DNA of 64,000 nt from the NCBI GenBank assembly GCA_964343575.1, contig CAYFJV010000001.1, forward strand, positions 596,705 through 660,704. The letters run 5' to 3'. The notes below the pieces were generated by a model. The model was not told where the DNA came from, made no database searches, and saw only the letters and a list, made by a program, of their open reading frames with translations. Each line of letters starts with the position of its first letter. Position 1 is the first letter of the stretch. This document shows positions 28,689 through 64,000 of the stretch, piece after piece. This DNA comes from an uncultured Methanosarcinales archaeon. Lineage in GTDB: Archaea > Nanobdellota > Nanobdellia > Woesearchaeales > GW2011-AR9. Both the position numbers and the translations under genes were made by a program.

Positions 28689-28714
28689 ATAACGCATTTT
28701 CTAAAAACCGTTAT
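28689..28714. repeat. imperfect palindrome at host/virus junction
   Basis: ATAACGCATTTT-CT-AAAAACCGTTAT, 10 of 12 arm positions complementary. Confidence 0.5.
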
Positions 28715-28786
28715 TCAGTCACCAAGCAGTAAAGACGCTGAAAGTGCTGAATTTTGTGCTTACGGCCTCTGTACTTCTTGAACTGC

Positions 28787-28842
28787 CAAAGGCATGAGAT
28801 AGCCTGTAGACTTGTCATTACAGGCTCTCAAGGCGTGCTTTG
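28787..28842 (+). other. stem-loop in leader of first viral gene
   Basis: AGCCTGTA/TACAGGCT core, flanked by TGAG/CTCA and CAAAGGCATG/CGTGCTTTG. Confidence 0.5.
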
Positions 28843-28883
28843 CGAGCGGATGAGACCGATTGAGTTAAGCGAGGTGAACCACC

Positions 28884-29129
28884 ATGAAAGACATGCAAAC
28901 GGTCGAGAAATACCGGCAAAGCCAAGATGAGAAATGGGCAAAAAAAGACAAAGATATCCACCTACAAGTCTGCTTCAAAAAAGCAGTAGATGTGGAAATA
29001 CACCTGATTCAGGGCGCACAAGCACTGAATGAGGCAGAGATTACTGCCAGAATTCTCCAACGCACAGAAGCCTATTTTCTCGGCTATGAGCAGCTCAAGG
29101 CCAAACTCATCGAAGGAGGCCAAGAATGA
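28884..29129 (+). CDS. viral hypothetical protein
   Basis: GAGGTGA SD upstream; 81 aa. Confidence 0.7.
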   Translation: MKDMQTVEKYRQSQDEKWAKKDKDIHLQVCFKKAVDVEIHLIQGAQALNEAEITARILQRTEAYFLGYEQLKAKLIEGGQE

Positions 29130-29305
29130 GCCACGCAGATGAGATCCGCCAAGAGCTTGAGAAAAAGAACAGACAAGCACGGCAGAACGTCAAACGAGAG
29201 AAAGACAACCAAGAATTCCAGGAATACCTAGATGACTTGGGCATAGACAGAATTGACAACCCTACAAAGGATAAGACCCAAAGCGGTCGGAGGTCTAGAA
29301 AATGA
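29126..29305 (+). CDS. viral small hypothetical protein (59 aa)
   Basis: ATGA overlaps at both ends, GGAGG SD; MSHADEIRQELEKKNRQ...; not in track. Confidence 0.6.
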   Translation: MSHADEIRQELEKKNRQARQNVKREKDNQEFQEYLDDLGIDRIDNPTKDKTQSGRRSRK

Positions 29306-29784
29306 AAATGGAAGTATCAGATAAAGTAGCAGTGCCTCAAAGGAGGCCACACATCAAGAAAGGATTCTACCATGCCAGGCTGGTAGAAGTACGTCCAAAG
29401 AAGGCAGAAAGCAAGTACGGCAAAAAAGTCGTGCTCTTATTTGACATCTTGAATGATGCCTTCAAAAAAGAAGGAAAATACTTGCAGCTGGCAACAGAAA
29501 CGTACAGCGAGTACAAGCAAGAGAATGGCTCGTACAGAACAGCAGTAACGCCAAACTCTCGGATAACAAAGATTTTCCAAGCGCTTGGCTGGACGTTTAC
29601 AACGCAAGGTCTTGACACGAATGATTTCATTGGTGCTGAGGCAAAAGTTCTGGTTGATGACTACGACTACGAGTTCACAGACCCTAACACAAACAAGAAA
29701 GAGACACTGAAAGGGTCAACCATTAACGACGTGAACAAGTGGGAAGAAGCACAGCCAGAAGTCAAGGAAGAAGTGGTGAGGTAA
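29302..29784 (+). CDS. putative phage-type ssDNA-binding protein (DUF669-like)
   Basis: KGFYHARLVEV...KVVLLFDI...FIGAEAKVLV pattern, position before helicase. Confidence 0.55.
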   Translation: MKMEVSDKVAVPQRRPHIKKGFYHARLVEVRPKKAESKYGKKVVLLFDILNDAFKKEGKYLQLATETYSEYKQENGSYRTAVTPNSRITKIFQALGWTFTTQGLDTNDFIGAEAKVLVDDYDYEFTDPNTNKKETLKGSTINDVNKWEEAQPEVKEEVVR

Positions 29785-33533: not shown

Positions 33534-33694
33534 AATCGCTCAAACGAAGATATGTGTATGAAGAAACCTATGAAGAAGTCATGCAATGGGCTCGGCAGCA
33601 TGATGTGAGAGCTCCAAATAACAAAAACAACTTTCCTTACTACTTAGCTGAGTATGTGAAAGCGTTGAGGTGTAACGATGTGGCGAGGATATGA
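33530..33694 (+). CDS. viral small hypothetical protein
   Basis: GGAGGTG SD, ATGA overlap. Confidence 0.55.
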   Translation: MKSLKRRYVYEETYEEVMQWARQHDVRAPNNKNNFPYYLAEYVKALRCNDVARI

Positions 33695-34625
33695 AGCACT
33701 CCCCAGCTACTTTGGAGGAAAAAGAAAACTAGCCAGGAAAATCTTAAGCTATGCTAAAGGAGAGGTTTTCATTGACGCTTTTCTTGGCGGTGGCAGTGTT
33801 TCTTTACTTGCTAAAGCAAAAGGGTACAGAGTTATCTGTAATGATATTGCTGAACGATCACGAATAGTAGGCAAAGCAATCATTGAAAACAAGAATACAA
33901 AACTTTCTGATTACGATGTGTATTCTTTATTCAAGAAAACAGAGAATAAATTCATTAGAGATACCTTTCCTAATCTTGCGTTGGAAAAAGATATCCAGTT
34001 CTTGGACAATGCTTTTGCCAATGCTAAGACTGACTTGCAGAAATTATTGTTAATCAAATTCTTGTTCAAATACAAACCCTTTAGCATGCTTTCAAACAAA
34101 GTACCTCGAGACTTGTCTGATTGCAATCTCAAAGTTATTCAACCTCACTTGAAGTACATGTTTAAACCCATAAGGACCCTAAAGCAATTACAGCAGAAGA
34201 TCAATTATGGTATTTTTGATAATGGAAAACAGAACGAGTTTCATCAAAAAGATGTCTTTGAATTCTTGCGAAGCGTGAAAGGAGATACGGTGTACTTTGA
34301 TCCACCGTACGCTGGAAGTCAAAGTTATGAAGAATTCTACAATATCTTAGACAGTATCTTGATGCAGAAAAAGATTCCCGTTACTAAAAGCAAGTTCAAT
34401 TCTAAAGATGCTGAACAATTTCTTCACAAACTTTTGGAAGAGTCAATGCATATTCCTCGAGTTATCTTTAGTTTTGGCGGGCCTAAAATTGACGGCCAGC
34501 ATTTATTGAGGATTGTGCAGGAACATCGCCCAGCTGAACTGCATGAGATTAAGCATAAGTGGGCGATAACTGCAAGTAAGGAGGATATGCAGACGGCAAC
34601 AGAAATATTGGTGGTGACAAAATGA
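33678..34625 (+). CDS. DNA adenine methyltransferase (D12/Dam-like)
   Basis: YFGGKRKL, DAFLGGGSVS, NDI, YFDPPY. Confidence 0.9.
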   Translation: MWRGYEALPSYFGGKRKLARKILSYAKGEVFIDAFLGGGSVSLLAKAKGYRVICNDIAERSRIVGKAIIENKNTKLSDYDVYSLFKKTENKFIRDTFPNLALEKDIQFLDNAFANAKTDLQKLLLIKFLFKYKPFSMLSNKVPRDLSDCNLKVIQPHLKYMFKPIRTLKQLQQKINYGIFDNGKQNEFHQKDVFEFLRSVKGDTVYFDPPYAGSQSYEEFYNILDSILMQKKIPVTKSKFNSKDAEQFLHKLLEESMHIPRVIFSFGGPKIDGQHLLRIVQEHRPAELHEIKHKWAITASKEDMQTATEILVVTK

Positions 34626-35263
34626 AAACAGAAAAAATACAGATGGAACTCATTACAGAAAATGAGTACAACCCAAACGAGATGGATGAAAACAAGTTCA
34701 AAAAATTAGTTCAGAACATTAAGAGAAAAGGATTTCGAAAACCTATCGAAGTTCGTAAGGTAGGTGAGAAATATGTGATTATTGATGGTGCTCACCGCTT
34801 CAAAGCATGCAAACAACTCGGCTACACAGAAGTAGAATGCATTATTGACAATGTGGATGAGATTGAAGCAATGGTTGATACATTGAATGCAAACATTCAC
34901 GGCTCACATAACCCATACAAAGAAGCGCAGATGTTCAAACACATCCATGAACGGTATGCCTTGAAAGATATTGAAAAACTTACGGTGTTTGGCCAGTCTG
35001 AAATTAAAGATAGAATGGAATTACTAAACTTATCTCCTTCTATTCAAAAAGAGTTAGAAAAGCAAGAATTGCAGGAATCAAAAGATGCACCAGTTGTACT
35101 GACATTTATGATTAAGGAGGCTGAGAAGCAAGTGGTCATGAATGCTCTTGGCAGGTGTGAAAGTTCTGATAAGAATAAGGCATTGATTGAGGTATGTCAA
35201 AAATCAATAGAGTGGGGTGAAGGAAGCAATGAGCTTAGAGGAAAGCCGCAGTCAAACAAGTAG
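34622..35263 (+). CDS. ParB/Srx N-terminal domain protein
   Basis: YNPNEM...GFRKPIEV...IIDGAHRFKA. Confidence 0.85.
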   Translation: MKTEKIQMELITENEYNPNEMDENKFKKLVQNIKRKGFRKPIEVRKVGEKYVIIDGAHRFKACKQLGYTEVECIIDNVDEIEAMVDTLNANIHGSHNPYKEAQMFKHIHERYALKDIEKLTVFGQSEIKDRMELLNLSPSIQKELEKQELQESKDAPVVLTFMIKEAEKQVVMNALGRCESSDKNKALIEVCQKSIEWGEGSNELRGKPQSNK

Positions 35264-35825
35264 TCGAAAAAGCAGACTGGACAACTTTGGAGATAAACTG
35301 CACACACTTACTGAAGCAGATCGTGCTAAAGGAAGAAAGGTCAAGTCAGCTAATCGATCACGGGCTAGTGCTTTCAATGCCATGAAAACAGGAAGGTACT
35401 CCAAGCGAGTTCCGCACTGTCATACCTGTATGTTTCGTAGTCAATGCAGTGCGTATGATCCTAAAGACCCCAAAGCAGCATGCAAAGTCATCAATATCCC
35501 TAACTATTTTCATTTGATGTCTGCCTTGACATTTGAGACAGAGGAAGATTTTGATAACTTTGTCAATAAATTAGTGCAGCGGATGTATATTAAGAATTTG
35601 ACGCAGGATGATTGGGAGAAACTCAAAGACTTCCTACTGATTTTCTTGCGTGTGAAAGATACTAAATTTCGCAGGCCACAAGATCAAACAGTCAATGTGC
35701 AAATCAATAATTTTCATACGGAGTTTCAATTGTTTAAGGATGCAACACTTACGGTGTTGAAAAAACATCCTGAAGTGTTAAAGGAATGGAGGTGTGCTCT
35801 TGAATCTGCTAAACAATCCGATTGA
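35229..35825 (+). CDS. putative terminase small subunit
   Basis: NAMKTG (NAxKHG-like), CxxC...C...C cluster, directly upstream of TerL. Confidence 0.6.
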   Translation: MSLEESRSQTSSRKSRLDNFGDKLHTLTEADRAKGRKVKSANRSRASAFNAMKTGRYSKRVPHCHTCMFRSQCSAYDPKDPKAACKVINIPNYFHLMSALTFETEEDFDNFVNKLVQRMYIKNLTQDDWEKLKDFLLIFLRVKDTKFRRPQDQTVNVQINNFHTEFQLFKDATLTVLKKHPEVLKEWRCALESAKQSD

Positions 35826-37263
35826 GGCAGCACTCTTTGAAAGCTTCAAAGAACCAACCTATGACAACTTCATAGGATTTGTCAAGAGATACTTAGCTCC
35901 TCACATGGAACAAGTCTTTGTCGAAGAAGAATATTATAACGAATGGTTTTGTTTAGAACAAAGTAATCAATATAATGCTATTGAAGCTCCCAGAGGCCAT
36001 AGCAAAAGTGAAATATTCACTGTCTGGCTTACTATCTACTATGCTATCTATGACATCAGGCATGAACAAATTGTTTCTTCAGTAAGCGGTGATCAAACTA
36101 ATGAATTATTTGATCGAATAAAATTCTTCTTTTACGTTAGTCCTTATTTGAATCAGCATTTCAAACCTGAAGGAGCAGATAAGAATGTCAGTTTAAGTTC
36201 GTGGAATTCTAAAAAGGTTGTCTTGAAAAATGATTCTATCGTACATGCCAGAAGTATTGCAGGCAAATGGAGAGGACTGCATGTTGACAGAATAGTATGC
36301 GATGATATTATCACTGAAGACAGCACCTTAAGTGATAAGCAGACTATTAACAAATTCTATTCAGCTGTGTTTAACTGTTCTACTGCAAAGAAAGGAACGA
36401 TAACTGTTATCGGAACTCCTTTACGGTTCACTGATATTCTGTATGATTTGAAAGCTAACACACAATTTTCATTTAATGCCTATCCAGCAATTCTTGATTT
36501 TGAAAAGAAGAAAGTGTTATCTCCTCTCAGAAAATCGTTTGAAGAATTAATACGAATCAAAGAAACCATTGGTTCTCTGAGATTTCAGTGCGAGTACATG
36601 CTCAATCCTATTGATGATCATAGTTCAATCTTCAAACGAGACTGGTTACGAAGAGCACAAGATGCAAGTTTAGATTTGATTAAGAATAGAAGTGAGCTAG
36701 ATCGTTTTGAGGTTAGTAATGTGATGTGCGGTGCAGACTTTGCCTTCTCCGAGAGAAAAGGAGCAAATTACTCGGTTTTCTTAACACTTGCTAGACTGCA
36801 CGATGGTCGTTTGTTGCTATGTGATTTTTTCAGAAGAAAAGGAATGACAGGCCAGCAACAAATCGACAAACTCAAAGAATTACATGCCGTCTATGATTAT
36901 GACACGATGGCTTTAGAAGAAAACAGCATCATGGCCATCAGTAAAGATATCCAACGCATTGGTCTGCCTATTAAGACTTTGCGAACAGGAAGCAGAGATA
37001 CAAATAATTCTCTTTCAAAAACAAACGCAATCCTTCGTATGACGACATGGTTTGAGAACAATCAAGTTATCATTCCGTATGCAAGTGATGAAGCTAAAGA
37101 AAAGTACGAGCTCTTGGAACAAGAGTTTCTGAGTTTTGCATTGGAAGATGGGAAGATCATAGAGATTGGTGTACATCCTGATATTCCTATTGCGTTTGTG
37201 TTTGCTGGAGAGGCTGCAAAGAAAGCATCAGCTGATGGTTTTGTAACAAGCATTGTACGATAA
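35794..37263 (+). CDS. terminase large subunit
   Basis: APRGHSKS Walker A, RGLHVDRIVCDD Walker B, IGTP, FQCEY, GADFA, HPD nuclease motifs. Confidence 0.92.
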   Translation: MLLNLLNNPIEAALFESFKEPTYDNFIGFVKRYLAPHMEQVFVEEEYYNEWFCLEQSNQYNAIEAPRGHSKSEIFTVWLTIYYAIYDIRHEQIVSSVSGDQTNELFDRIKFFFYVSPYLNQHFKPEGADKNVSLSSWNSKKVVLKNDSIVHARSIAGKWRGLHVDRIVCDDIITEDSTLSDKQTINKFYSAVFNCSTAKKGTITVIGTPLRFTDILYDLKANTQFSFNAYPAILDFEKKKVLSPLRKSFEELIRIKETIGSLRFQCEYMLNPIDDHSSIFKRDWLRRAQDASLDLIKNRSELDRFEVSNVMCGADFAFSERKGANYSVFLTLARLHDGRLLLCDFFRRKGMTGQQQIDKLKELHAVYDYDTMALEENSIMAISKDIQRIGLPIKTLRTGSRDTNNSLSKTNAILRMTTWFENNQVIIPYASDEAKEKYELLEQEFLSFALEDGKIIEIGVHPDIPIAFVFAGEAAKKASADGFVTSIVR

Positions 37264-37279: not shown

Positions 37280-37642
37280 ATGAAGTTTGACCCAAACACA
37301 TTAAACAGGCGGGATTCAAAAATACTCAAAGCATTGCTGTATTTTTATCCTCGAAAGAAAAGTGCAGCACAGATGTACACGTACATCTCAAAGTACTCTC
37401 AGAAGACTGGACTTAAAGGAGCAAAAGCACTAGGACATATTCTTGTTAGGTTTCCTGTAAAGTCGGAACTGACAGTGGCCAGTAGCATGACAAAGAACAG
37501 GATCGTTAATTGCAGGTATGTTCGCCTGTATGTACTAAAGGATTCGTTTGTGAAGAAATATTATAAAGAAAAAAATGACTTGATCAAATTGGGGAAAAGG
37601 AAGTCTAAAAATGTCAAAAGAAAAAAGTCCTCCAGAAAGTAA
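37280..37642 (+). CDS. viral basic hypothetical protein
   Basis: AGGAGGTGA SD before ATG 37280. Confidence 0.6.
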   Translation: MKFDPNTLNRRDSKILKALLYFYPRKKSAAQMYTYISKYSQKTGLKGAKALGHILVRFPVKSELTVASSMTKNRIVNCRYVRLYVLKDSFVKKYYKEKNDLIKLGKRKSKNVKRKKSSRK

Positions 37643-39674
37643 ACCCTTGATGATTCTCTCGCAAGTCAATGAAGGGGTTAGGCAAACAGCGATCACCATA
37701 GATTATTCTAGTGTTAATTATGGGAAGCTTGAAAGTATTTACAAGACGGAGCAGATGGTCTTTCAAGCAGTCAACATCATCAGCACCTTTGCCATATCAA
37801 AAGGATATGAATACATTGTGAGTGAGAATACTGATGAACAGTTAGAAATGCGTGATCAGATATCTTCGTTTGATGCAAAAGTTGGGCTTTCTAAATTATT
37901 GACTGATGTTGTTCGTCACTTACACATTTACGGCAATGCGTATCTTGAGATTGTGTATTCTAAAACTGACCAGAAGAAAGTTGTCGGATTAGTGTTAATT
38001 GACCCTAAGACAATTATGTTTAAGAAAAAGTCTACTGGTGAAATTGATTTTGATGAAAGCGGAAGCATAAAAGGCTACGTGCAAACAGTTAATGCCAAGA
38101 AAGTGGATTTAAATCCTGAACAAATCATACATTTTAGAATAAATACGATTGCTGATTCTTTAACTGGCACTGGCATTATTGAACCGTTAGTGAAAGTTAT
38201 CGAGGCAAAACGTAATATTGAGTTAGGTTTAGCTGAAGCAGTGTATCGTCATGGGTTTCCACAATTTCATGTTAAGCTGGGTGATGTTGATCATCAACCA
38301 ACAGCTGATCAAGTAACTGAAGAGAGTGAGAAATACAAGCGCATTAATTCAAAATCAGAATTTGTCACACCATACTATTATGACATCAAAGTTTTAGAAG
38401 CTCCATCATTAAAAGGCGGCGAGAATTACTTGAAATATTTCATTGATCAGATCGTGTCTGGTACTGGCGTTCCCCAATCCATTCTGTTAGGTTCTGGTGA
38501 AGGAAGTAACAGAGCAACATCTTTTACTCAACAGCAGAATTTCTTTTTGTATATTGGTGGCGTGCAGATGCTACTTGCTGAAACATTGCAGAAGTGTTTG
38601 TTTACTAAAGTGCTTGGTGTTGAGGAAAGCCCTGTGTCTATGATGTTTAATTCTTTGCAAACCAAAACTGACCTTGAGTTAGCGGAAGAAAGGGAAATCT
38701 ATCTGCAAAACGGTGTTTTGACTCCTGATGAGGTCAGGCAAGAGATGGGATTGGAACCTATTTCTCCACCCCCAACGGATGAGTCCATCTCTGGTTCATC
38801 AGGAGCTTTTCTTTTTTCAGAAAAAGAATTCCTCAATGATGCAGAATTAATGCTTGATGCGGATGAAGATTTTCAAGCAAGGGAGTATTCTTTGAAAGAA
38901 GAAGAGTTTGGAGGTGTACTGAAGGAATTGAGCAGACCAATACGTTCACGCTTTATACGAGACCAACAAATTCTCACTCACAGATTGAATAAAATTATGA
39001 ATAGGTCTATGACTAAGGTATTGAAAGAGATTGATGACAAGCTTAGTGATGAACAAACACTTGCAGCTGAAGACATACTTGTTGACGCTGAACTTCTTGC
39101 TCCTGAACGAGATGCTCTTGTGGCAGCAGTCTTTATCGACTCTAAGAAAAAGTTTAAACAAGGCATCAAACTTGGAGAGGATTTCATAAAGAAGAAACAT
39201 CCAGTGGTTGCAGGAATTAAAGTAAAAAGCACTGTAAATGAACAAGCAGTCAGAGCTCTTGACTTACGATCATCTCAACTGGCTAAATCCTTACACGATG
39301 ATTTATTGAGTGCAACACAAACAGCCATACGTGAAGGATTGCAAGCACGAAAAGGAGCAAAGCAACTCAAAGAAGACATCGAGAAAGTCTTTGAAAAGTT
39401 TGGAGGAACTTCTGGACGATTTAACAGAGTAGGCACACGAGCCGAACTCATAGCAAGAACAGAACTGCACCGAGCATTTATTGAAGGCAACCTGCAAAGC
39501 TTCAAAGAACTAAAAGTTGAGAAGTTACGAATGATTATTAACGTTGGAGCGTGTGAAGAGTGTATTGATGTTGCAGCTGATAGCCAAGCAGTACCAGTGC
39601 AATTATCAGAAGGAATTATCCCAGTTCATCCACGATGCAGGTGTGGTTGGGTTGCTGCGAAGATTGGTGAATAA
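37611..39674 (+). CDS. portal protein fused to Mu gpF-like head morphogenesis domain
   Basis: YGNAY, IIHFR, GVPQSILLG, GVLTPDEVRQEMGLEP; C-term RAELIARTE...CEEC...PVHPRCRC. Confidence 0.88.
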   Translation: MSKEKSPPESKPLMILSQVNEGVRQTAITIDYSSVNYGKLESIYKTEQMVFQAVNIISTFAISKGYEYIVSENTDEQLEMRDQISSFDAKVGLSKLLTDVVRHLHIYGNAYLEIVYSKTDQKKVVGLVLIDPKTIMFKKKSTGEIDFDESGSIKGYVQTVNAKKVDLNPEQIIHFRINTIADSLTGTGIIEPLVKVIEAKRNIELGLAEAVYRHGFPQFHVKLGDVDHQPTADQVTEESEKYKRINSKSEFVTPYYYDIKVLEAPSLKGGENYLKYFIDQIVSGTGVPQSILLGSGEGSNRATSFTQQQNFFLYIGGVQMLLAETLQKCLFTKVLGVEESPVSMMFNSLQTKTDLELAEEREIYLQNGVLTPDEVRQEMGLEPISPPPTDESISGSSGAFLFSEKEFLNDAELMLDADEDFQAREYSLKEEEFGGVLKELSRPIRSRFIRDQQILTHRLNKIMNRSMTKVLKEIDDKLSDEQTLAAEDILVDAELLAPERDALVAAVFIDSKKKFKQGIKLGEDFIKKKHPVVAGIKVKSTVNEQAVRALDLRSSQLAKSLHDDLLSATQTAIREGLQARKGAKQLKEDIEKVFEKFGGTSGRFNRVGTRAELIARTELHRAFIEGNLQSFKELKVEKLRMIINVGACEECIDVAADSQAVPVQLSEGIIPVHPRCRCGWVAAKIGE

Positions 39675-39761
39675 GTCAAGAATAAATATTCACTTGACAG
39701 TAGCAACTAAATAGAAAGCTTTATAAGTGACTTCCTCTTTTTCTTAGTAAATCCTTTATAA

Positions 39762-40496: not shown

Positions 40497-40497
40497 A

Positions 40498-43616: not shown

Positions 43617-43619
43617 AAA

Positions 43620-47633: not shown

Positions 47634-47646
47634 AGGTGAAACAAAA

Positions 47647-53125: not shown

Positions 53126-53163
53126 ACATTGAAAGTACAACTTGGAATATATAAAAGCTCCTG

Positions 53164-53185
53164 AAATAATATTAAGAAAAAAATA
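53164..53185 (+). promoter_or_regulatory. viral promoter-like motif copy 2
   Basis: AAATAATATTAAGAAAAAAATA starting 35 nt before ATG 53199. Confidence 0.7.
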
Positions 53186-53198
53186 CAGTCCTCATTCT

Positions 53199-53561
53199 AT
53201 GGTCAAGATAAGGGTAATTAGCCCTGACCTCAAGAAGCTAAAGAAGAAAGTAGATGCGTATGGTGACAAGGGCTTCAAGGAAGACGTGCATGAATCCATA
53301 AGGAAAGTGCTCCCGAAGATTCATGGAGATGCAGTGGTCAATGCTCCTGCTAAAACAGGGTTGTTGAAAGCATCGTTGCATGTTGGATTTGAAGATGACC
53401 TCACAGGCTTCATAGCTGATGGGGTATTTTACGGTGTCTTCCAGGAGGAAGGGACTCGGACAATACCGCCAAAGCATTTCATGAGAAATGCTGTCAATAA
53501 ACATTTCCCAAGTGTGGGAGATGCAGTCAAAGTAAGCGTGCAAAAAAGATTCAATCAATAG
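53199..53561 (+). CDS. HK97 gp10-like tail completion protein
   Basis: NAPAKTGLLKASL, YGVFQEEGTRTIPPKHFMRNA. Confidence 0.85.
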   Translation: MVKIRVISPDLKKLKKKVDAYGDKGFKEDVHESIRKVLPKIHGDAVVNAPAKTGLLKASLHVGFEDDLTGFIADGVFYGVFQEEGTRTIPPKHFMRNAVNKHFPSVGDAVKVSVQKRFNQ

Positions 53562-53604
53562 AATCTTAGCAAGCGTCTCTTCAAGAGTGAGGAGGGCTAA
53601 AGGA

Positions 53605-54066
53605 ATGGAAAAAGAACCAATAATCATAGTCCAAGATTTGCTACGGGCAGAACTCTACGACTATAATACAAGTAGAACTGGAGAATGGATTTATCCAGAC
53701 TTCCCAAAAGTAAACTTAGGAAATCCTTCTTACCCTCGGGTATCTGTTACAGATGCCGATGAGCCTGCTTCTAAGATAACTGTTGGAACAAAAGATGAAA
53801 TGCAAACCATTGACATTGATATCAATGTATGGGTTAAGTCAGGAATCATCTATGAAAGAGACTCCGAACAGTTTGAAGGTACAAAGTTGCGAGATGCTAT
53901 CGCCAGAGAGATAGTAGAACTATTGAGAACAAAGCAACTGGATTTAGATGCGCTAGGCTTGAGAAATTATCAGAGACTTGGGATGAAGCCCATTAATACG
54001 GAAGTTGCTGAAGGCGTTGTAAGAAAACAGATCACTGTCAGATTCCAAAGATCAGTGAAGCATTAG
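53605..54066 (+). CDS. tail terminator protein
   Basis: YPRVSV, IDINVW; position before tail tube. Confidence 0.6.
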   Translation: MEKEPIIIVQDLLRAELYDYNTSRTGEWIYPDFPKVNLGNPSYPRVSVTDADEPASKITVGTKDEMQTIDIDINVWVKSGIIYERDSEQFEGTKLRDAIAREIVELLRTKQLDLDALGLRNYQRLGMKPINTEVAEGVVRKQITVRFQRSVKH

Positions 54067-54124
54067 GTTGTGGTGAATTGAGTTGAAACCAAAACAAAAT
54101 CAAAACAACGGAGGATGATTAACC

Positions 54125-54592
54125 ATGACCTTATTTTTCGGAACACAAGGAAGCGTCGAGATTGACACAGTTCAATCCGAAAACATTACAGAGTGGAGTT
54201 TATCCACAAGTGCAGACATTGAGCAAATTAAGACCATTGGAAATTTCACCATCTTTGATGAAAAACCACTGGACTTAGTTGAAGGGAGTTTGAGTATCAT
54301 TACTGATGATCCTGGCTTTGTTGGAAAGCTATTCGGTAATGTTGTGACTCAAGCAGACACTCCAGCTGCAGGAGATACTACAACAACCATTACTCTTGGA
54401 ACTACAAGAACCAAGTTTAATGCAACATTCGATTACACTGATGCTGACGGTAATCAGTTTAAGATCGATTGTGTTGACTGCGTGGCCACTGATCACGAGT
54501 TTAGCAACGAAGCTGAAGGAATCTTTGAGGAGAGCTTCAGTTTCAATGTGAAACCTGAGAACATAACCATCACGCATGTCAAAAAGGCATAA
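54125..54592 (+). CDS. major tail tube protein
   Basis: FGTQGSVEID...ITEWSLS...EESFSF beta-rich; position. Confidence 0.7.
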   Translation: MTLFFGTQGSVEIDTVQSENITEWSLSTSADIEQIKTIGNFTIFDEKPLDLVEGSLSIITDDPGFVGKLFGNVVTQADTPAAGDTTTTITLGTTRTKFNATFDYTDADGNQFKIDCVDCVATDHEFSNEAEGIFEESFSFNVKPENITITHVKKA

Positions 54593-54627
54593 GCCTATTG
54601 ACTAAACAATTAGGCGGGATCAGACTC

Positions 54628-54984
54628 ATGGAAGAACAACAAAAACCTAAAGAGGAAACAGAAAGCAAAGAAACGCCAAAAGAGAAGATGGAACAGCAAG
54701 AGTTCCGAAACATAACCATATACCACATGCATAAGGATGTGGTTACGGAATTCAAGCAATGGTGTAAAATCCATGCTGGTAACAAATTCCCTGCTGGCAT
54801 CGATCTTTTGCTTTCTAGGGCTAAAATGTATGACTCTCTCACACAAGTTGAGACGAGACTCGCTGCTGTAGAGCAGCAACTTGCCATGCTTCTGCCTGGT
54901 AAGAAGAGTGCCGAGGAGCATTCAGAAAAAACAGAAGTTAAGACCATAGGAGGTGCACAGCATGGCAAACAGACACAAGCTTAG
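54628..54984 (+). CDS. possible ribbon-helix-helix + coiled-coil protein
   Basis: ITIY-HMHKDVVTEFKQWC-FPAGIDLLL then heptads. Confidence 0.45.
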   Translation: MEEQQKPKEETESKETPKEKMEQQEFRNITIYHMHKDVVTEFKQWCKIHAGNKFPAGIDLLLSRAKMYDSLTQVETRLAAVEQQLAMLLPGKKSAEEHSEKTEVKTIGGAQHGKQTQA

Positions 54985-55294
54985 AGATTTGTTGGCAAAG
55001 TCAAACGAAAAGAAAACTATCGAAGTTCCCTACAACGATGATGTTGTGGAAGTGGAGATCACTCCAGTAACCTTTGGAACAGTAATGTCCAAAGGAGGAG
55101 GCAAAGACCCAAGTGATAAGGAGATGACACGAGAGATCATCAAAGCAGCCACTGGCCTGTCAGATGAAGAAGTGAATAAGCTACCACTGGACTTTGTTCC
55201 TGCATTAGGAGATGCCATTTCCAAAGAATCAGGACTGGACAAATTGGCTCAAAGGCGAGCTGAACGTTTTCCAAGTCCTCAGAAGGGAGAGTAA
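54962..55294 (+). CDS. tail assembly chaperone (gpG-like)
   Basis: position before TMP; GLSDEEVNKLP...ISKESGL; AGGAGGTG SD. Confidence 0.7.
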   Translation: MANRHKLRDLLAKSNEKKTIEVPYNDDVVEVEITPVTFGTVMSKGGGKDPSDKEMTREIIKAATGLSDEEVNKLPLDFVPALGDAISKESGLDKLAQRRAERFPSPQKGE

Positions 55295-58400: not shown

Positions 58401-59602
58401 GAACAGAAGGATTTTCAGCATTTAAAGAAGTTGGAGAAGTAGCAAAGAGAATAGGAATCTCTATCTTGAAATCATTTATTGGAGCAATTGATTCTATGAT
58501 CAATATCTTCATTGATCTCATTAATGAACTGATCAATGTCGCAAAGAAAATTCCTCTCCTTAACAAACTCATCGGAGATAACTTCAAAATTGATAGAAAT
58601 GTTCTGAGTAGTTTACTTGGTTTTGCTAAAGATGCTGAAAAAGCGGTTACTCCTCAAGTGCAAGCAGCACAACAAACTGGCACATCGTTCTTTAGTGCTG
58701 CGAAGACAACACTCGGAACAGAAGGTCAGACTGTAGTAGATGCAGCTGCTGATCCATTTAGACAAGTTACTCAAGAAGCAGCACAACTAGGTGCTCAAAC
58801 AGCATCTAACTTTGTGCAACCATTCACTGACCCAGTAAACATTGCACAATCTCAAGCATCTGTAAGATCAATATTTCCATCAAATGAAGAAGCACATCAA
58901 ATGGGTAGGAACTTTGGTGCCGCTTTCTTTACTGGCCTTGCCGAAGGAGCTCAGGAATTAGTAGAGATTTTCAACTCAAACATTAAGCCAGTTTTCACGA
59001 CGATGAATGATGCACTAAAAGAGTTTATTACTCTTTTCTTGAGAAGCTTGTTTAGCTTAAAGATTGTACCTATTTTCTTGGATAGTTTAGCAAGAAGAAT
59101 GTTTGACATCTTTGTTGGAGGATGGCGAACCATGTTTATCGCAGTGATTGATGTTACTGAGCAATCAGTTAATACTATGCTTGATAATCTCGAGAAGTTC
59201 TTCAATCAACTTGTGTCAGTTGTGAATAGGCTTATTGCTGAATACAACAGAGCAGCTGATGTTCTTGCGAGAGACATTACCAGGACAAGAACCAGAAGAG
59301 TTAGGAGGAGAACAAAGTCTGGTAAAGTTAGGACGAGAACTATCAGAACAAAAGAGATTCTTTTCAAAGGGGTGAATATTCCAAAACTTGCTCAGTTTAG
59401 TCCTGTTGATCTTCAATCTTTGCAGTTTCAGAGACCTGCTGTTCCAGCTCAATTACCTTCTCAACTTTCTACTGTTGAAGCTGGAGGCTTCACTGTAAAT
59501 ATTGAGAACTTTAATGCTTCGTCTGAAGCTGATAAGCAGAAACTCTTCGCAGAGATTGACGCTTTTATTGCTAAGAAACTTGGAGAGTTGGTGAGATTAT
59601 GA
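55484..59602 (+). CDS. tape measure protein (TP901-type)
   Basis: 1372 aa; LGSSTAFSAQEVAEA...AGF, GIRGSIAGTSL, Ala/Gly-rich amphipathic repeats. Confidence 0.93.
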   Translation: MVESVRIKFKGEDKVSPALNKINAGVGRLTSKLEGTGRIFSSVNKKLLIGLGAIGAAFTALGVKAIKSFGEFDRQIKRVQVLAGGTQKDFERLADTAFKLGSSTAFSAQEVAEAFEEFAKAGFNVNQILEASESTLGLATAGNLSLSEAVNIAVAALNAFGREASDTNSVATVLTTTFTNSALTLQDLGQSLKFVAPLAANLGISLEEVSASLGTLAQVGIRGSIAGTSLNQAMLRLLKPSEKAAEVTEDLGVNFFTLNESAQAAQATIQATKDQFNVLREEVRQSDIEVANLGAQLASAKRELKAFGKESDSTEGVSKSVSGLQTLFDDARLRNQELRESLEAQEKEFDALRRQVREGSQDFVGLRDATRQLNDAFAEVNASTVQKATALVEIFGVRGARSVLTLTKELGEFDKLFNLITATELRTELVDESSLRAALSAQDSFAREFGITFEDLIKDIEKVPEGVDKALRDSALDERARGIFRNLRREVQDLGLDAESIEAVLADFLPLDSVKDFRKIIQSTDEDFETFLSNINAANQDAQTLNKTLLNNLGSALEELQDTITTTFIRIGGAIAQRLDLTNVVRNIQQSIEDFSTGGGVEQLADRLVKVFRVIGSFFRGIGKGFKEVFTPDIVIELREAFVRNFGVIKDEATGFGTVLGRVLGSIVKGAAQLITRILNTNLIENASSAFKKLGRILEKISPAIGAFGAAFIILSPILGPLLFILSKIVGVAGLFIRGILGAGRAVSGLLGGASKLTTALGGVVGKVTGVGAAASGAATTSTGFLAKLGAIGGSIKAIFAAIGSAIGVSAGAAAAIVVAIIGTVIGFINQVRQNFLGLGDDFKVIFGAVVGIFKAVGSAILENLRDVGQLIKPIWEGVKETFNALGKILASLVAIVIKPFANGLREAGEQGISAFDIIKGLVTALFVPLRITLTVLGSVLKAVGAIVNFVAEIIAGIVEFGFVVAEAFKKFRTEGFSAFKEVGEVAKRIGISILKSFIGAIDSMINIFIDLINELINVAKKIPLLNKLIGDNFKIDRNVLSSLLGFAKDAEKAVTPQVQAAQQTGTSFFSAAKTTLGTEGQTVVDAAADPFRQVTQEAAQLGAQTASNFVQPFTDPVNIAQSQASVRSIFPSNEEAHQMGRNFGAAFFTGLAEGAQELVEIFNSNIKPVFTTMNDALKEFITLFLRSLFSLKIVPIFLDSLARRMFDIFVGGWRTMFIAVIDVTEQSVNTMLDNLEKFFNQLVSVVNRLIAEYNRAADVLARDITRTRTRRVRRRTKSGKVRTRTIRTKEILFKGVNIPKLAQFSPVDLQSLQFQRPAVPAQLPSQLSTVEAGGFTVNIENFNASSEADKQKLFAEIDAFIAKKLGELVRL

Positions 59603-59982
59603 AATTAACAGATGAAAATCAAACATCGGACTTGTTTGTGTTCAATGATACTAATAAGGCCATCACAACTTTAGAAACTAAAGATAAAATCATTTGGATA
59701 GAGCATGACATTCCAAACAAAACAGGAAACATAAGGCATTTTATGGGAACAGGCGATAACGATGTTGTTCTAACAGGACGATTATTTGGTGATCAATCAA
59801 GCAAAGCAACTAACAAAGGAACGCTTAGAAGTTTGGCACTAAATGGAACGATACTCTATCTTGACACAGAAGGTTACGAGGACGATCTAAATGGAAAGTA
59901 CGTTATCACAGAGATCGAAATTCCTGAACGTGGAGGAGAGGCGTGGGAATTTACGATTGTGCTTACACAATTCAATAATTGA
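59599..59982 (+). CDS. distal tail protein-like
   Basis: 127 aa after TMP; HFMG...LTG...GKYVITEI...WEFTIVL. Confidence 0.6.
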   Translation: MKLTDENQTSDLFVFNDTNKAITTLETKDKIIWIEHDIPNKTGNIRHFMGTGDNDVVLTGRLFGDQSSKATNKGTLRSLALNGTILYLDTEGYEDDLNGKYVITEIEIPERGGEAWEFTIVLTQFNN

Positions 59983-59984
59983 AA

Positions 59985-62540
59985 ATGGCAGAACCGCACA
60001 TACCTGTATTCAAAGTAAGTATAGACAACGGAGAAGGATTTCAACAGATTTCAAACCAGGTTATTAAATGGGATGCTAATGTAGCGGTAACTTCCAGAAC
60101 AAATACTGCTTCTCTTGATATTAATTATGATGCATTACAACAAATACAAGACTTTGATACTTCTGCTAGGTTGAAGATTGAAGCAGGATATGATGAAAAC
60201 AATTTGAAGCTTATCTTTGATGGATTAATTCGCAACATTAGGAAAGGAAATACTGATGAGAGTTTTGATGTTGAAGCTGATGACTATTCTGTTTACATGC
60301 TTGATCGTTTTATCACTGGTGCTTTTATTCAAACAAAAGCAGTAGACATTATTAAAGATATTATTCAGGATCAAATTCCAGAGTACACTTTTGATGAAAA
60401 TTCTTTTGATGATCATGAGTTTATTGTAGAGAACTATGCTTTTGAAGACAAGCCAATTAGTGATGTTATTGAATATCTCACTGATCTTATAGGTTTTAAT
60501 TTTTGGGTGGAGAGCGATGGTGCTAATGAGATTAAATTCTTCTGCAAGTTAAGAAAGAGTGTAAATTCAAATTTTGTGCTGGAACGTGGAAAGAACTTGA
60601 AGAATTTGATATTTATCGAAGATAAGTCTCAAATGTTCAATAGGGTTATCATTGAGGGTGACAAAAGAGAGTTTAATACTGAGGAAGGATTTCTCGGAGA
60701 TGGTTCAGGCAAAGAATTTACTGTGCGTTTCAAACCACGAAACGTGAGAATAACTATTGATGGTAATCAACTGCATGGTGGTATTGAAGGAGCTGCTACA
60801 AGTCCTGATTTCTTTGTTGATTTCTTCAATAGAAAGATAACTTTTGTTAATACTCCTGCCAATTTGGCAAATATAATTGTCACTTACAGTTATGATATCC
60901 CTATCAAAGTTGAGGCTACAGATTTCGCTTCCATTGCTCGTTATGGAGAGAAAGTCCAACTTATCAAAAATAAAAATATCAAAGAGAAATCAGAAGCAAG
61001 AAAGTATGCAAGAGAATACATCAAGCAATATGGTAAACCTCTTAACATTGCAGAAGCAGATGCACCAGCAAGCGTAGATTTTGATGTTGGCAATGTCATT
61101 ACAGTTATTGACTCTAATAAAGGAATTAACAGCAAGATGCAAGTGTTGGAATGCACTTACACTTTTTCAAAAAGAGATGGCTTTACTACTGTATTAAAAC
61201 TTGCTCAGACAGCGCAGACAGGATCATCAGTTCTCAAAGATATCATTCTGAGATTAAAACAAGTAGAAGAATTATTGAGGGGAGACGTTGAAATTGTTAC
61301 TAAGTTATCAACATTTGAAGAAACTATCACAATTAGAATTAAGAGAATTACTGCAAAGAAAAGAGAATTGCTTAAAGGATTCACTTACAGCAGAGAAGGG
61401 GTATGGAATAAGAAAGATTGGGGAGTTGAAAACCTTGCAGCATTTGAAACATTCTTTGAATTTGGTGATAAAGATGTTTTGCATACCGACACTGTAATCT
61501 TCCAAGAAGAGGAACTGAAAGTTGAAGTATTATTTAGCCCAGAACTTGACAAAGTTCTTGTCTGGAGTTTAGGCGAGTGGACTCAAGATTCATGGAGCGG
61601 AGAAACAGTGTTTGCCATCCCAACTCCAACTATTGAGAAGACTATCCTTGATGAATTGAAATCTGATCTTGAGAGAACTTCATTCCATCTCTCAGTGCAT
61701 CCAGACTTCAGCAACGCAACACTTTGGAGTCTGAATGGAGCAAGTCCTCCGCTATGGTCTAAGATAGGCTTTACCAAAACTCCTGTGCCTGGTGCTCCAA
61801 CCCCAATAACCCAAGAGAAAGAAGCAATTGACTTACTGTCCACTGCTGAAAGAGAGAGCATAGAACTAACGCTTGATCCTCAACTAGACACAAAGAACAA
61901 GTTATGGAGTTTCAACTATGTCTGGAGCGAAACAGGAGAAGAAATTCCTCTCATTGAACCTACGCATATCAAAGATGTAACTAATGATCTCTTGTCCAGT
62001 GAGCATATCTCTATGGAGTTTGAATTGCCTAGCTTCATGGATGATGAACTTGTTTACAGCAGGTCTCGGTGGAGCAAGAGTCCTACGATTGAGTTTACGC
62101 CAACCGCAAATATTATCTTGAAAGAAATAGATGAAGATATTGTCACAGGGGAAACTGTCTCCTTTAGACTCAATGAGTTGGAGGATGGATTCTTCTGGGG
62201 AATCAGAGCCTGGAGCACTGATGATTGGGGAAATATCCCTAAGAGTCTCGCTCAGCAGGACATACAGAACAGAATAGTACAGGATGATTTGGTTTCTGGA
62301 GAGGACGCCAGATTGGAGGTGTCATTTGAATCAGTCTTTAGAGGATGGGGCATAAAGCTCTGGAATCAAGACGGATGGGTGAAATTTGAACAACCAGCAG
62401 AACAGCCAGCCACTCACGATAAGTTTGAGGAAGAACTCCTAGTTGTTTCCGAAAGAGTAGGCTTCCAAAGCATCAATTCGCTTAATCAGCTGACGGATTT
62501 CATCAACTCAAAATCAAAATGGAGTGAAGCAGCATGGTAA
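59985..62540 (+). CDS. baseplate hub / tail tip protein with Trp-rich C-terminal repeats
   Basis: IEAGY...IFDGLI, NRVIIEG, SIARYG, DVGNVITV hub motifs. Confidence 0.75.
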   Translation: MAEPHIPVFKVSIDNGEGFQQISNQVIKWDANVAVTSRTNTASLDINYDALQQIQDFDTSARLKIEAGYDENNLKLIFDGLIRNIRKGNTDESFDVEADDYSVYMLDRFITGAFIQTKAVDIIKDIIQDQIPEYTFDENSFDDHEFIVENYAFEDKPISDVIEYLTDLIGFNFWVESDGANEIKFFCKLRKSVNSNFVLERGKNLKNLIFIEDKSQMFNRVIIEGDKREFNTEEGFLGDGSGKEFTVRFKPRNVRITIDGNQLHGGIEGAATSPDFFVDFFNRKITFVNTPANLANIIVTYSYDIPIKVEATDFASIARYGEKVQLIKNKNIKEKSEARKYAREYIKQYGKPLNIAEADAPASVDFDVGNVITVIDSNKGINSKMQVLECTYTFSKRDGFTTVLKLAQTAQTGSSVLKDIILRLKQVEELLRGDVEIVTKLSTFEETITIRIKRITAKKRELLKGFTYSREGVWNKKDWGVENLAAFETFFEFGDKDVLHTDTVIFQEEELKVEVLFSPELDKVLVWSLGEWTQDSWSGETVFAIPTPTIEKTILDELKSDLERTSFHLSVHPDFSNATLWSLNGASPPLWSKIGFTKTPVPGAPTPITQEKEAIDLLSTAERESIELTLDPQLDTKNKLWSFNYVWSETGEEIPLIEPTHIKDVTNDLLSSEHISMEFELPSFMDDELVYSRSRWSKSPTIEFTPTANIILKEIDEDIVTGETVSFRLNELEDGFFWGIRAWSTDDWGNIPKSLAQQDIQNRIVQDDLVSGEDARLEVSFESVFRGWGIKLWNQDGWVKFEQPAEQPATHDKFEEELLVVSERVGFQSINSLNQLTDFINSKSKWSEAAW

Positions 62541-63001
62541 TGGAACAAAAAAAAGATACACTCAAAGCAATCGGAACTGTAAACATGCAGGTTATCGATA
62601 AAGAAGGAAAAGTCATTGAGAGCATGACTGAAAACAAAGTCGTTGATACAGGCATCCAAGCAATGCTAAAACACATCAACGGGCAGGAAACCAGCACTAT
62701 CAGTTATTTCAAGATAGGAACTGGGACAACACAACCAACTGGAGCAGATATTGGAATGGAAATACCAGTTGACTTCGCTGTGGCAATTCCAACGAAGGTA
62801 TTTGACAGCGTTGTATTTCCCTCTCTAAGGGAAATGAAGTACCAACTGACAGTGGACTTCACCGAGGGCAACGGAAACACTCTTAGCGAAATTGGATTGT
62901 TCTTTGCAAATAACACCTTGTTCTCAAGGTTCTTGCATCAGGGAATCAACAAGACCAGCTTCATCAAAATAGTGTTTCAATACACCATAAAGATTGAATA
63001 A
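62534..63001 (+). CDS. tail fibre/baseplate attachment-type protein
   Basis: NKVVDTG...YFKIGTGTTQP...EGNGNTLSEIGLF. Confidence 0.6.
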   Translation: MVMEQKKDTLKAIGTVNMQVIDKEGKVIESMTENKVVDTGIQAMLKHINGQETSTISYFKIGTGTTQPTGADIGMEIPVDFAVAIPTKVFDSVVFPSLREMKYQLTVDFTEGNGNTLSEIGLFFANNTLFSRFLHQGINKTSFIKIVFQYTIKIE

Positions 63002-63014
63002 GGAGGATTAAATC

Positions 63015-63362
63015 ATGGCAATAACTAAAGTTGGAAGACAGCAACTTCTTCAAGCTTTGAATAGTCAGATCACTCATTTTGCTTTGGGAACAGCTCAAGA
63101 CACCGATAATGAGTTTGCTACTTCACTCGGTGCTGAACAGTTTAGAAAACCAGTTACAGCCAAAACTGTTGAAGAAGACACTAATAGCATTGATGTTGAA
63201 TGCTTCATCGGATCAACTGAAGGAAACGGTAATGATTTCAGCGAGTTAGGACTGCTTGATGCACCTAGCGGAGGGAGCCTGTTTGTGATCACGAACTTCC
63301 CTCCAGAGACCAAATCATCGCTCTTAGAGTGGTTGATAGATGTCGTGATTGAAATAAAATAA
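63015..63362 (+). CDS. paralogue of preceding tail protein
   Basis: ITKVGR...THFALGT...EGNGNDFSELGLL. Confidence 0.6.
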   Translation: MAITKVGRQQLLQALNSQITHFALGTAQDTDNEFATSLGAEQFRKPVTAKTVEEDTNSIDVECFIGSTEGNGNDFSELGLLDAPSGGSLFVITNFPPETKSSLLEWLIDVVIEIK

Positions 63363-63378
63363 TATTAAGAAAAAAATA
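63357..63378 (+). promoter_or_regulatory. viral promoter-like motif copy 3
   Basis: AAATAATATTAAGAAAAAAATA starting 35 nt before ATG 63392. Confidence 0.7.
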
Positions 63379-63391
63379 GGATGGTGATACT

Positions 63392-64000
63392 ATGGCCTAC
63401 GAAATCAAGAATAACGAAATTGCTTTTGCACCTGCTGTTGAGAATATCAACCGAGGACACAGGATTTTTGGAGTGAGTGACGAGAATAGTCATGAAGTTA
63501 TACCTTATCAAGATATGATTCTGCAAATACCTAGTGCTGGTCAGGTATGGATTAATGATGTGAGAAATGTTTGGCTTGATAGCGTTCAGGATAATTTTGA
63601 AGCTGGTGTTAGTGATTGGGAGACTAGCGGTCAATCAGCAGTGAGTGAAGAAATTTCTATCGTTCAAGAAGGAACAAAAGCTATGAAAATGACGTGGACT
63701 CATGATGGTCTTACTCAATTTGATAATCGAATTTTAAAGAAGTACAACACTATAGATTTCAAGTACAGGAATAAGTTAATCTTTTATTTCTATCCAGTTC
63801 TTGCTCTTCAAGATGCATTATATATTAGATACAGGAATAATAACAGCGAGTTTACCCTAGCTCAAGTTAATCCACTTGATGTAACTGCAGGTCAATGGAA
63901 TCTTATTGAGATTGATTTGCCAGCATCTGATGTGCAAAAGAACAAGTTCCAAGAACTTATCTTTGAGTTTGATGGTTTGCAGTGGACTGGTGTAACTCAT
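63392..64000 (+). CDS. putative tail fibre / receptor-binding protein, partial
   Basis: open to window end (MAYEIKNNEIAF...DNFEAGVSDW...EGTKAMKM...GQWNLIEIDL), CBM-like jelly-roll pattern; not in track. Confidence 0.6.
   Translation, partial: MAYEIKNNEIAFAPAVENINRGHRIFGVSDENSHEVIPYQDMILQIPSAGQVWINDVRNVWLDSVQDNFEAGVSDWETSGQSAVSEEISIVQEGTKAMKMTWTHDGLTQFDNRILKKYNTIDFKYRNKLIFYFYPVLALQDALYIRYRNNNSEFTLAQVNPLDVTAGQWNLIEIDLPASDVQKNKFQELIFEFDGLQWTGVTH

Follow-up and report, generated by a model that had tools for sequence, protein, structure and literature searches.

A bounded siphovirus-like provirus in a Woesearchaeales archaeon, probably a new genus within the Woesearchaeales tailed provirus lineage

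The stretch of DNA considered here comprises 64,000 nt (positions 596705-660704 of contig C1, CAYFJV010000001.1; the window in what follows) and very probably holds the left 35 kb of an integrated, genetically intact provirus of about 58.3 kb, a siphovirus-like member of Caudoviricetes that resides in a Woesearchaeales (DPANN) archaeon and belongs to the lineage published as 'Woesearchaeales tailed proviruses' (WATPVs). The genome (G000) spans 1.215 Mb in six contigs, with an estimated completeness of 95% and contamination of 0.6%. Ordinary archaeal genes occupy positions 1-28590, and from 28884 to 64000 there follows a tight, gap-poor run of open reading frames (ORFs) on the + strand, in which the sole clear - strand gene, at 52364-53140, encodes a nucleotidyltransferase; there is no sharp GC shift from the host genes into the virus block. 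A preliminary description of the window had reported more than 35 kb of co-oriented genes contiguous with archaeal housekeeping genes, and both statements hold, the genes left of 28590 including those for tRNA-intron endonuclease, FEN1, fibrillarin, Trm5, GluRS, and PurA. The extent that it gave was accurate on the left, where its coordinate of 28689 lies 29 nt from the start of the attL core (28660), but not on the right, since the element does not stop at 64000; positions beyond the window are given in the same numbering (window frame). Gene families were assigned with Pfam and PHROGs, tRNAs with ARAGORN, noncoding RNAs with Rfam, and defence genes with PADLOC and NCBIfam, and folds were judged from AlphaFold2 (AF2) models searched with Foldseek. 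Relatives were sought among 400 other sampled genomes of the phylum, as well as in named contigs of metagenome-assembled genomes (MAGs) and in IMG/VR contigs; three of the genomes with relatives (G237, G214, and G165) and one genome of the same family without the element (G409) served for comparison.

The ends of the element are defined by a 13-nt direct repeat. Its left copy, the attL core (TATAAATGTTTCG, window 28660-28672), occurs nowhere else in the 1.21 Mb genome in exact form, and its right copy (attR, C2:155-167) has two mismatches to attL, both in the right half. The repeat emerged from comparing the relatives, a whole-genome BLAST search with the left junction having returned chance 14-15-mers only. 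The same 13-mer bounds the elements in G237, G214, and G165; conserved element sequence lies inside each att copy and unrelated sequence outside, and homology to the relatives starts at attL. Where long flanks are available, in three genomes, a single segment has the left end of the virus on one side and a module of two recombinase genes on the other. The relatives' flanks share no genes with those of this genome, and a common orthologous insertion locus is therefore rejected. A tRNA or a known noncoding RNA as the integration target is rejected as well: the ARAGORN predictions for the window, both junctions, and the stretches of four relatives contain no tRNA, and Rfam yields nothing at the right junction. 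A short RNA gene 3' of attR (hairpin plus T-run, C2:170-230) was dropped as a candidate, as it could equally well be the terminator of the neighbouring - strand gene.

Integration receives independent support from an empty site. In G409, the order of genes runs from FEN1 through to Trm5, fibrillarin, GluRS, PurA, a PRC-barrel protein, and an Ig-domain protein, and then directly to homologs of the genes right of attR, namely those for a 159-aa protein, a geranylgeranyl-reductase-like protein (locally inverted), and large Ig-domain proteins. Between these two sets of flanking genes there is an att-like sequence, TATAAACTTTTCG. The two attR mismatches resemble this site and fit an attB of host type, the crossover falling within TATAAAT in the left half of the core. 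In the present genome, neither junction falls at a contig end: attL and the adjoining host DNA are contained in C1, attR and its host side in C2. Both flanks carry genes on the - strand for large secreted proteins with He_PIG/Big_9 Ig domains (window 26317-28590; L007:4143-7757), and the provirus is located inside this cluster of surface-protein genes, directly upstream of one of them.

The preliminary description was correct that the window contains neither an integrase gene nor a tRNA, and the right end, the integrases, and the att repeat that it proposed to look for have now been found, the integrases and right end lying some 19-23 kb past the end of the window, on C4 and at the beginning of C2. 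The complete element measures 58,265 bp (window frame 28660-86924) and continues from C1 into C4, read in reverse complement, and from there into the start of C2. Only 4.3 kb of C1 remain past the window, the contig ending at window-frame position 68314, and exact 55-nt overlaps between contig ends join its right end to that of C4, whose left end is joined in the same way to that of C2. The C1/C4 join completes a 108-aa XhlA/hemolysin-like ORF that aligns with those of relatives at 100% coverage, and C2:1-154 is homologous to the relatives' right arm and contiguous with attR and the host flank. Genes are thus ordered from replication through packaging, head, neck, and tail to the XhlA-like gene, approximately 15 kb of variable cargo, and the recombinase module at attR (Table 1). 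The two tyrosine recombinases are 52.5% identical to each other and both whole, with 96-100% coverage against relatives; integration of the SSV type, in which the int gene is split, is ruled out since both genes are whole at the right end.

Table 1. Features of the window and of the element beyond it; positions are window coordinates, continued in the window frame past 64000
Feature	Position	Strand	Evidence or remark
Left host genes	1-28590		PfkB kinase, class II aldolase, RpiB, Rpe, tRNA-intron endonuclease, FEN1, TrmB, Trm5, fibrillarin, thioredoxin reductase, GluRS, PurA
Ig-domain surface protein, 757 aa	26317-28590	-	adjoins element on the left
Three small early genes	28884-29129, 29126-29305, 29302-29784	+	conserved in G237, G214, and G165 at 47-81% identity
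MCM-like replicative helicase (predicted), 680 aa	29979-32021	+	divergent; fold match
AEP-superfamily primase-polymerase, 378 aa	32003-33139	+	motifs, homolog family matches, and fold
Stand-alone Gins51 C-terminal (B) domain protein, 73 aa	33127-33348	+	start overlaps end of primase gene
Dam-type N6-adenine DNA methyltransferase	33678-34625	+	MethyltransfD12 E 1e-19; PADLOC MTase_II E 5e-24
ParB-like nuclease/partition domain protein	34622-35263	+	ParB_N E 2e-15; phrog_3264 E 1e-19
Putative small terminase	35217-35825	+	position only, directly 5' of TerL; conserved in relatives; no family match
Large terminase (TerL)	35794-37263	+	phrog_38 E 8e-48; Terminase_6N
Portal fused to MuF-like minor head domain	37611-39674	+	Phage_portal E 5e-19; Phage_Mu_F E 3e-4; portal and head-morphogenesis PHROGs
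Variable island, nine genes	39762-46175	+	SAM methyltransferase, seven unknowns, DUF5680 protein last
Prohead protease	C-terminal half of 46250-47164	+	phrog_80 E 4e-5
Coiled-coil protein	within 46250-48021	+	between protease and scaffold
Scaffold	47605-48021	+	phrog_673 E 2e-7
HK97-fold major capsid protein (MCP)	48040-48846	+	Phage_capsid E 2e-20; phrog_10 E 4e-24
MCP paralog	48875-49621	+	26-28% identical to adjacent MCP
Head closure (Hc1) connector	51988-52362	+	phrog_161 E 2.6e-6
Nucleotidyltransferase (moron)	52364-53140	-	Polbeta/NTP_transf_2; weak MntA-antitoxin, ANT, and cyclase-like matches
Neck1/tail completion	53142-53561	+	phrog_5 E 2e-16
Two tail proteins	53587-54066, 54125-54592	+	no family match; homologous to labelled QZIT genes
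Overlapping tail-chaperone-like ORFs	54598-54984, 54953-55294	+	no family match; homologous to labelled QZIT genes
Tape measure protein (TMP), 1372 aa	55484-59602	+	PhageMin_Tail E 2e-41; phrog_1533 E 5e-70
Dit/GpU-like	59599-59982	+	Phage_P2_GpU/Dit_like
Tal-like	59979-62540	+	YQBQ/Prophage_tail
Two fibre N-terminal proteins	62534-63001, 63015-63362	+	Phage_tail_fib
Baseplate or receptor-binding candidate, 879 aa	63392-66031 (past window end)	+	weak virion/baseplate PHROG matches
309-aa protein	66730-67659		just before XhlA-like gene; weak transglutaminase-core and LapG-like cysteine peptidase matches, E about 6e-4
Cargo	on C4 (reversed)		SDR, isochorismatase, radical SAM, TrmB, Orc1/Cdc6, hydrolases, MFS transporter, CYTH, GNAT, aldo-keto reductase fusion, AsnC, Asn-synthase-like
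Right-end module	C4 to C2 start, next to attR		HARE-HTH gene between two XerA-type tyrosine recombinase genes (294 and 321 aa)

The element is a head-tailed virus of Caudoviricetes, as it encodes an HK97-fold MCP, TerL, and a portal. The genes for packaging, head, neck, and non-contractile tail named in the preliminary description are confirmed by Pfam and PHROG matches, and among the family matches obtained for the window and beyond it there is no tail sheath family, so that a non-contractile, siphovirus-like tail is a reasonable reading of the gene content. The tail-tip block (59599-63362) also matches phrog_400, phrog_5417, and phrog_4176, and the 879-aa baseplate or receptor-binding candidate is 62-72% identical over its full length in G237 and G214. 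Where family matches are missing, homology to a published provirus assists: the ORFs at 53587-55294 are 57-77% identical to genes of QZIT01000006_pro, the provirus of G237, that are labelled tail protein or tail assembly chaperone in the supplementary tables of PMC11705971 (Microbiol Spectr 2024). The same source assigns, by HHpred, protease and scaffold labels to the homologs of those two proteins, labels both capsid paralogs of QZIT01000006_pro as MCP, and gives the homolog of the third early gene the label 'DNA polymerase phrog_14876', which was not reproduced in the present searches; the three early genes have no significant match in Pfam or PHROGs. All five IMG/VR relatives retain the second MCP paralog, as do G237, G214, and G165; a division of labour between hexamers and pentons is possible, and is raised as an example only.

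That the provirus is apparently intact, as had been claimed from the window, is borne out by the core genes, which are full length in comparison with two relatives: coverage reaches at least 89% of the length in G237 or G214, except for four short ORFs (68-81%), and protease and TMP are covered at 50-55%, each in one relative only. The element departs from the relatives in several places. The island between portal and protease is missing or replaced in every relative compared; its only matches are to Methyltransf_12 and DUF5680 (E 6e-35), seven of its nine genes being without a family match, and a TTTATAA motif lies 42 nt 5' of it. The slot itself (39655-46200) is hypervariable, being empty in one IMG/VR relative and filled with 1.2-10 kb of unrelated DNA in others. 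The nucleotidyltransferase gene sits exactly between the head-closure and Neck1 genes and has no counterpart in any relative, homology resuming at 53161; no gene for a toxin or HEPN partner is seen beside it. The 309-aa transglutaminase/LapG-like protein, also absent from the relatives, is a possible lysis enzyme that degrades the cell envelope. Neither the island nor the cargo contains a complete defence system that PADLOC or NCBIfam recognises, their matches being limited to methyltransferases, weak nucleotidyltransferase/MntA-like hits, and HTH proteins. C4, which carries the cargo, is 18.5 kb long with a GC content of 0.364, and its breaks at both ends are not at att sites; they may stem from variation in cargo between strains of the sampled population.

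The replication genes are archaeal, as had been noted from the window, with an MCM fold, an archaeo-eukaryotic primase (AEP), and Gins51_C all confirmed. The 680-aa protein is, judging from its modelled structure, a divergent MCM-fold helicase. The Pfam MCM signature is not matched, only AAA weakly (E 8e-4), and a profile of the protein retrieves MCM9 from the PDB at E 0.21; its AF2 model (pLDDT 86.8, built on 25 of 43 homologs found, none of them named) has MCM2-7/MCM chains as all of its top matches listed by Foldseek (best E 1.3e-16). These matches run full length (E 1e-16 to 1e-14, probability 1.00, TM about 0.45), and the fold comparison recovers the MCM architecture of N-terminal OB, AAA+, and C-terminal winged helix. 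In PMC11705971, the homolog is assigned to MCM2 by HHpred. In the primase, D85, D87, H123, and H125 (the DxD and H motifs) are invariant, LigD_Prim-Pol is matched weakly by 16 of 18 homologs (best E 8.9e-6), and nearly all listed Foldseek matches are AEPs (RepB', Prim-PolC, LigD pol, CAPP, and PriS), albeit weak (best E 2.5e-4). The 73-aa protein matches Gins51_C (E 5.2e-7; 29.8 bits, the cut-off being 27), as does no other protein in the genome except the host Gins51, and is 41% identical to residues 233-276 of the latter, its last 44 residues. A GINS A domain (Sld5) is not found in the viral protein, the sole Sld5 match of the genome being the host gene, and sequence-only searches of the PDB with helicase, primase, and GINS-like protein return nothing significant. 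The Orc1/Cdc6 encoded in the cargo is 45% identical to that of the host.

TerL is 79-84% identical in five IMG/VR contigs (four classed as provirus and one as linear), in six named MAG contigs (three Woesearchaeota, one 'archaeon', one Aenigmatarchaeota, and one Cloacimonadota bacterium), and in four of the 400 other sampled genomes of the phylum, which represent four families of the same order. The relatives are collinear at about 70% nucleotide identity, and G237 contains homologs of 41 of the 51 ORFs in the virus block (28884-68321), with identities of 35-86% and mostly near full length. Two of the MAG contigs, JAIPET010000001.1 (Woesearchaeota) and JAIPIH010000012.1 (Cloacimonadota), agree in att position, left flank, and gene coordinates, and the second is probably mis-binned. 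Compared with two relatives, the element has an intergenomic similarity of 39-40% (VIRIDIC-like), against a genus line set at 70% similarity by ICTV convention; at about 40%, the element is a new member of the published lineage and probably a new genus. That lineage is described in PMC11705971, where QZIT01000006_pro (51,544 bp, 210221-261764) and QMQO01000002_pro (55,455 bp) are named WATPVs; the att core in G237 delimits a segment of the same length, which reproduces the published coordinates exactly. The paper places the WATPVs in a clade distant from reference archaeal viruses, possibly as separate families. The suggestion that the present virus might represent a new family is therefore not upheld, as described relatives share its core gene set. 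A literature search on the lineage name and the host order finds the lineage described only in PMC11705971; one of the DPANN virus families reported by Wu, Liu and Ni (Nat Microbiol, 2024), which according to the citation in PMC13573593 include Zhurongvirus and Houtuvirus among others, may correspond to this lineage.

The correspondence with the WATPVs is close. Table S5 of PMC11705971 lists MCM, primase, GINS, Dam, ParB, TerL, portal, protease, scaffold, two MCPs, TMP, XhlA, Cdc6, and two XerA-type recombinases, and the present element has the same order, from the early genes through this series, with neck genes between the MCPs and TMP, the tail tip between TMP and the XhlA-like gene, then Orc1/Cdc6, and finally the two XerA-type recombinases with HARE-HTH. 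The 13-nt att core, the terminal two-recombinase module, and the host order are likewise shared, and TerL and MCP are 83-84% and 86% identical, respectively. In contrast, the 6.4-kb portal-protease island, the nucleotidyltransferase gene, and the transglutaminase-like gene before the lysis gene are found only here, and host family and insertion locus differ. The cargo differs too: here it comprises SDR, isochorismatase, radical SAM, TrmB, MFS, hydrolases, GNAT, and AsnC, whereas the published pair carries the Dnd/Pbe and DISARM defence systems.

Archaeal tailed viruses (arTVs) have an HK97-fold MCP, TerL, a portal, and a tape-measure-based tail, and frequently possess MCM, primase, and Orc1-type replication genes; all of these are shared by the present element. 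In bacterial temperate siphoviruses of the lambda, HK97, and TP901-1 type, the modules are ordered as TerS-TerL-portal-protease-scaffold-MCP-connectors-tail-chaperones-TMP-Dit-Tal-fibres, and integration relies on a tyrosine recombinase and a short att repeat. The present element resembles them in the order of the morphogenetic modules and in this mode of integration but differs in its archaeal/eukaryote-like replication genes, its att core, which reads as a B recognition element (BRE) and a TATA box, and its two integrase and two MCP paralogs. A classification of the arTVs within Caudoviricetes was reportedly provided by Liu et al. in PLoS Biol in 2021.

The nature of the att core offers a possible explanation for the choice of insertion sites. 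Read on the - strand, the core is CGAAACATTTATA, which matches the BRE+TATA consensus of the host: in this genome, TTTATA peaks between -40 and -21 relative to long-ORF starts, with (C/A)(G/A)AAA ahead of it, and the core occurs with at most two mismatches in 32 of 1020 upstream regions, compared with 2 of 1020 random 100-mers. A - strand gene starts 24-70 nt left of attL in G000, G237, and G214. A 21-nt junction pattern, composed of the core and the left arm, which misses relatives whose left arm begins CTACTAAG, finds a further 16 junctions among metagenome contigs, against zero among viral contigs; the left contexts of the 16 differ except for one duplicated pair. When 19 distinct left flanks of at least 280 nt were tested (four short metagenome loci, L060, and duplicate loci being excluded), a leftward ORF of at least 60 codons was found to start within 90 nt of the core in 18, as opposed to 694 of 2000 random control positions, and in 12 of the flanks an ATG lies 23-35 nt from the core. 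We infer from these patterns that the integrase may target the core promoter of leaderless host genes rather than a tRNA; a target that follows the promoter consensus would explain why insertion sites differ between hosts. The promoter as a target is possibly a new biological point. G237 contains an additional exact att core about 800 nt right of its attR (L074:7567) and a one-mismatch copy at L074:1136, which could be further promoters or traces of other insertions.

On the preferred reading, one recombinase would integrate the circular genome at a short sequence that doubles as a host core promoter, some 23-35 nt 5' of the start codon of a host gene that runs leftward and is probably leaderless. 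The full core being kept in attL, the host gene would retain its promoter. After excision, replication would proceed with the Orc1, MCM, and primase of the virus together with host factors, followed by packaging through TerL and lysis through the XhlA-like protein. A bolder scheme, which stands somewhat short of even odds, would have the lineage use the host's consensus promoter (BRE+TATA) for attachment 5' of many different leaderless genes across Woesearchaeales families. In this scheme, the right arm places a BRE-like CGGAAA ahead of the same TATA, and excision would rebuild a forward promoter for the early genes, which would constitute an excision-dependent switch; the virus would also bring a near-complete archaeal initiation set (Orc1, MCM, and AEP primase), the stand-alone Gins51 B-domain protein perhaps forming a tie to parts of the host replisome. 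If the promoter target is confirmed, it would explain the varied insertion loci, and the question is raised of how the expression of the neighbouring gene is affected.

Other explanations of the locus can be set against the same evidence. It is scarcely credible that a free virus or a bacterial phage contig was wrongly joined to, or binned with, an archaeal chromosome. Relatives do occur in Cloacimonadota bacterium and Aenigmatarchaeota bins, but the Cloacimonadota-labelled locus shares its att position and left flank with a Woesearchaeota-labelled one, the same att-bounded layout recurs in independent MAGs with different flanks, and the replication genes are archaeal in type. Since both junctions with host flanks lie inside contigs and the empty site in G409, of the same family, is syntenic, a chimeric assembly or a mis-binned free virus is very unlikely, in agreement with the earlier argument against a bacterial contaminant. 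It is also improbable that the locus is a tandem composite, with a tailed virus (28.7-68.3 kb) beside an integrative plasmid-like element (68.3-86.9 kb) that contributes Orc1/Cdc6, cargo, and integrases and is alone in owning the last. Such a composite would account for cargo that is almost wholly different between relatives, for the contig breaks at both ends of C4 and its lower GC content, and for a virus block without an integrase of its own, and att-like sites with one mismatch do exist inside G237 and G165. These sites are, however, about as frequent as expected by chance for a promoter-like 13-mer (an estimate of ours, not a computed value), and no att copy with two or fewer mismatches is present near 68.3 kb. 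Moreover, Orc1/Cdc6 directly follows the XhlA-like gene in G237, the left end of the virus and the integrase module occupy opposite att sites in four genomes, including that of the tail-less G165, and PMC11705971 treats the whole as one provirus.

A cryptic or defective provirus, complete on paper but producing neither excision nor virions and persisting as a fixed island, is unlikely, although it draws on several of the observations that weigh against an intact provirus. The attP (circular) junction is unseen: the 16 metagenome contigs contain the core with the left arm, none contains it with the right arm, and viral contigs give no match, so that the search for circular forms suggested at the outset has returned none in viral or metagenome contigs; rare circular forms are, however, seldom captured in bulk metagenome contigs. 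Four of the five IMG/VR relatives are classed as provirus, and G165 carries a derivative without neck and tail genes, from which it follows that decay occurs in the lineage. The difference between attR and attL at two of 13 positions could also come from decay, but the mismatches are confined to the half expected from attB and resemble the empty site of G409. On the other side, the core ORFs are full length in comparison with two relatives that are only 53-86% identical in protein, which suggests selection on coding capacity, and at least 19 distinct insertion sites with an identical 13-nt core imply repeated, fairly recent mobility; taken together, the many insertion sites that share an identical core and the intact genes speak for present or recent mobility of the lineage. 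A genetically intact, integrated WATPV thus remains the preferred reading, and further points have to be counted against it. The C1-C4-C2 path and its junctions rest on overlaps and comparative evidence, the cargo between lysis gene and integrases shares only Orc1/Cdc6 with relatives, so that its packaging is presumed, and the primase fold matches are weak, with a model of pLDDT 73.7. The TATA-type promoters of the preliminary description stand in part, as strict TATA motifs are found in few of the intergenic gaps of the provirus. Finally, the records that match TerL and GluRS bear mixed labels, including Aenigmatarchaeota and a Cloacimonadota bacterium for the former and Methanosarcinales in three of six cases for the latter.

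The host is supported, indirectly, as a Woesearchaeales (DPANN) archaeon. G237 belongs to the same order as G000, and the genome of G237 is given as p__Nanoarchaeota, o__Woesearchaeales in the tables of PMC11705971; together with the small genome, this sustains the probable DPANN host of the preliminary description. The six best GluRS matches by identity (43-59%) are three Woesearchaeota and three 'uncultured Methanosarcinales', the label that the present genome also bears; a genome of 1.2 Mb without any mcrA match makes this label doubtful. ARAGORN with intron search predicts introns in 21 of 34 tRNA genes, one of them an implausible 2570-nt 'intron' (C1:160484-163146).

Few DPANN viruses are known, and we know of no cultivated virus of Woesearchaeales, which makes a complete, well-bounded member valuable. 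The lineage is widespread, being present in five of 401 sampled genomes of the phylum including this one, in four host families, and at about 19 distinct public insertion sites. What is gained here is an exact map over three contigs, validation of integration by an empty site, and a 13-nt core by which further members can be found. Given two variable slots with different cargo in each member, the lineage may be a vehicle for gene exchange among small genomes. Elsewhere in the genome, there are six further tyrosine-recombinase matches (C2:355611-362489, C2:429646-433038, C2:377243-380518, C1:185665-189147, and C2:447882-451364), of which two are strong and XerA-like and several of the weaker ones lie close together at C2:357-361 kb; the genome may hold other integrated elements.

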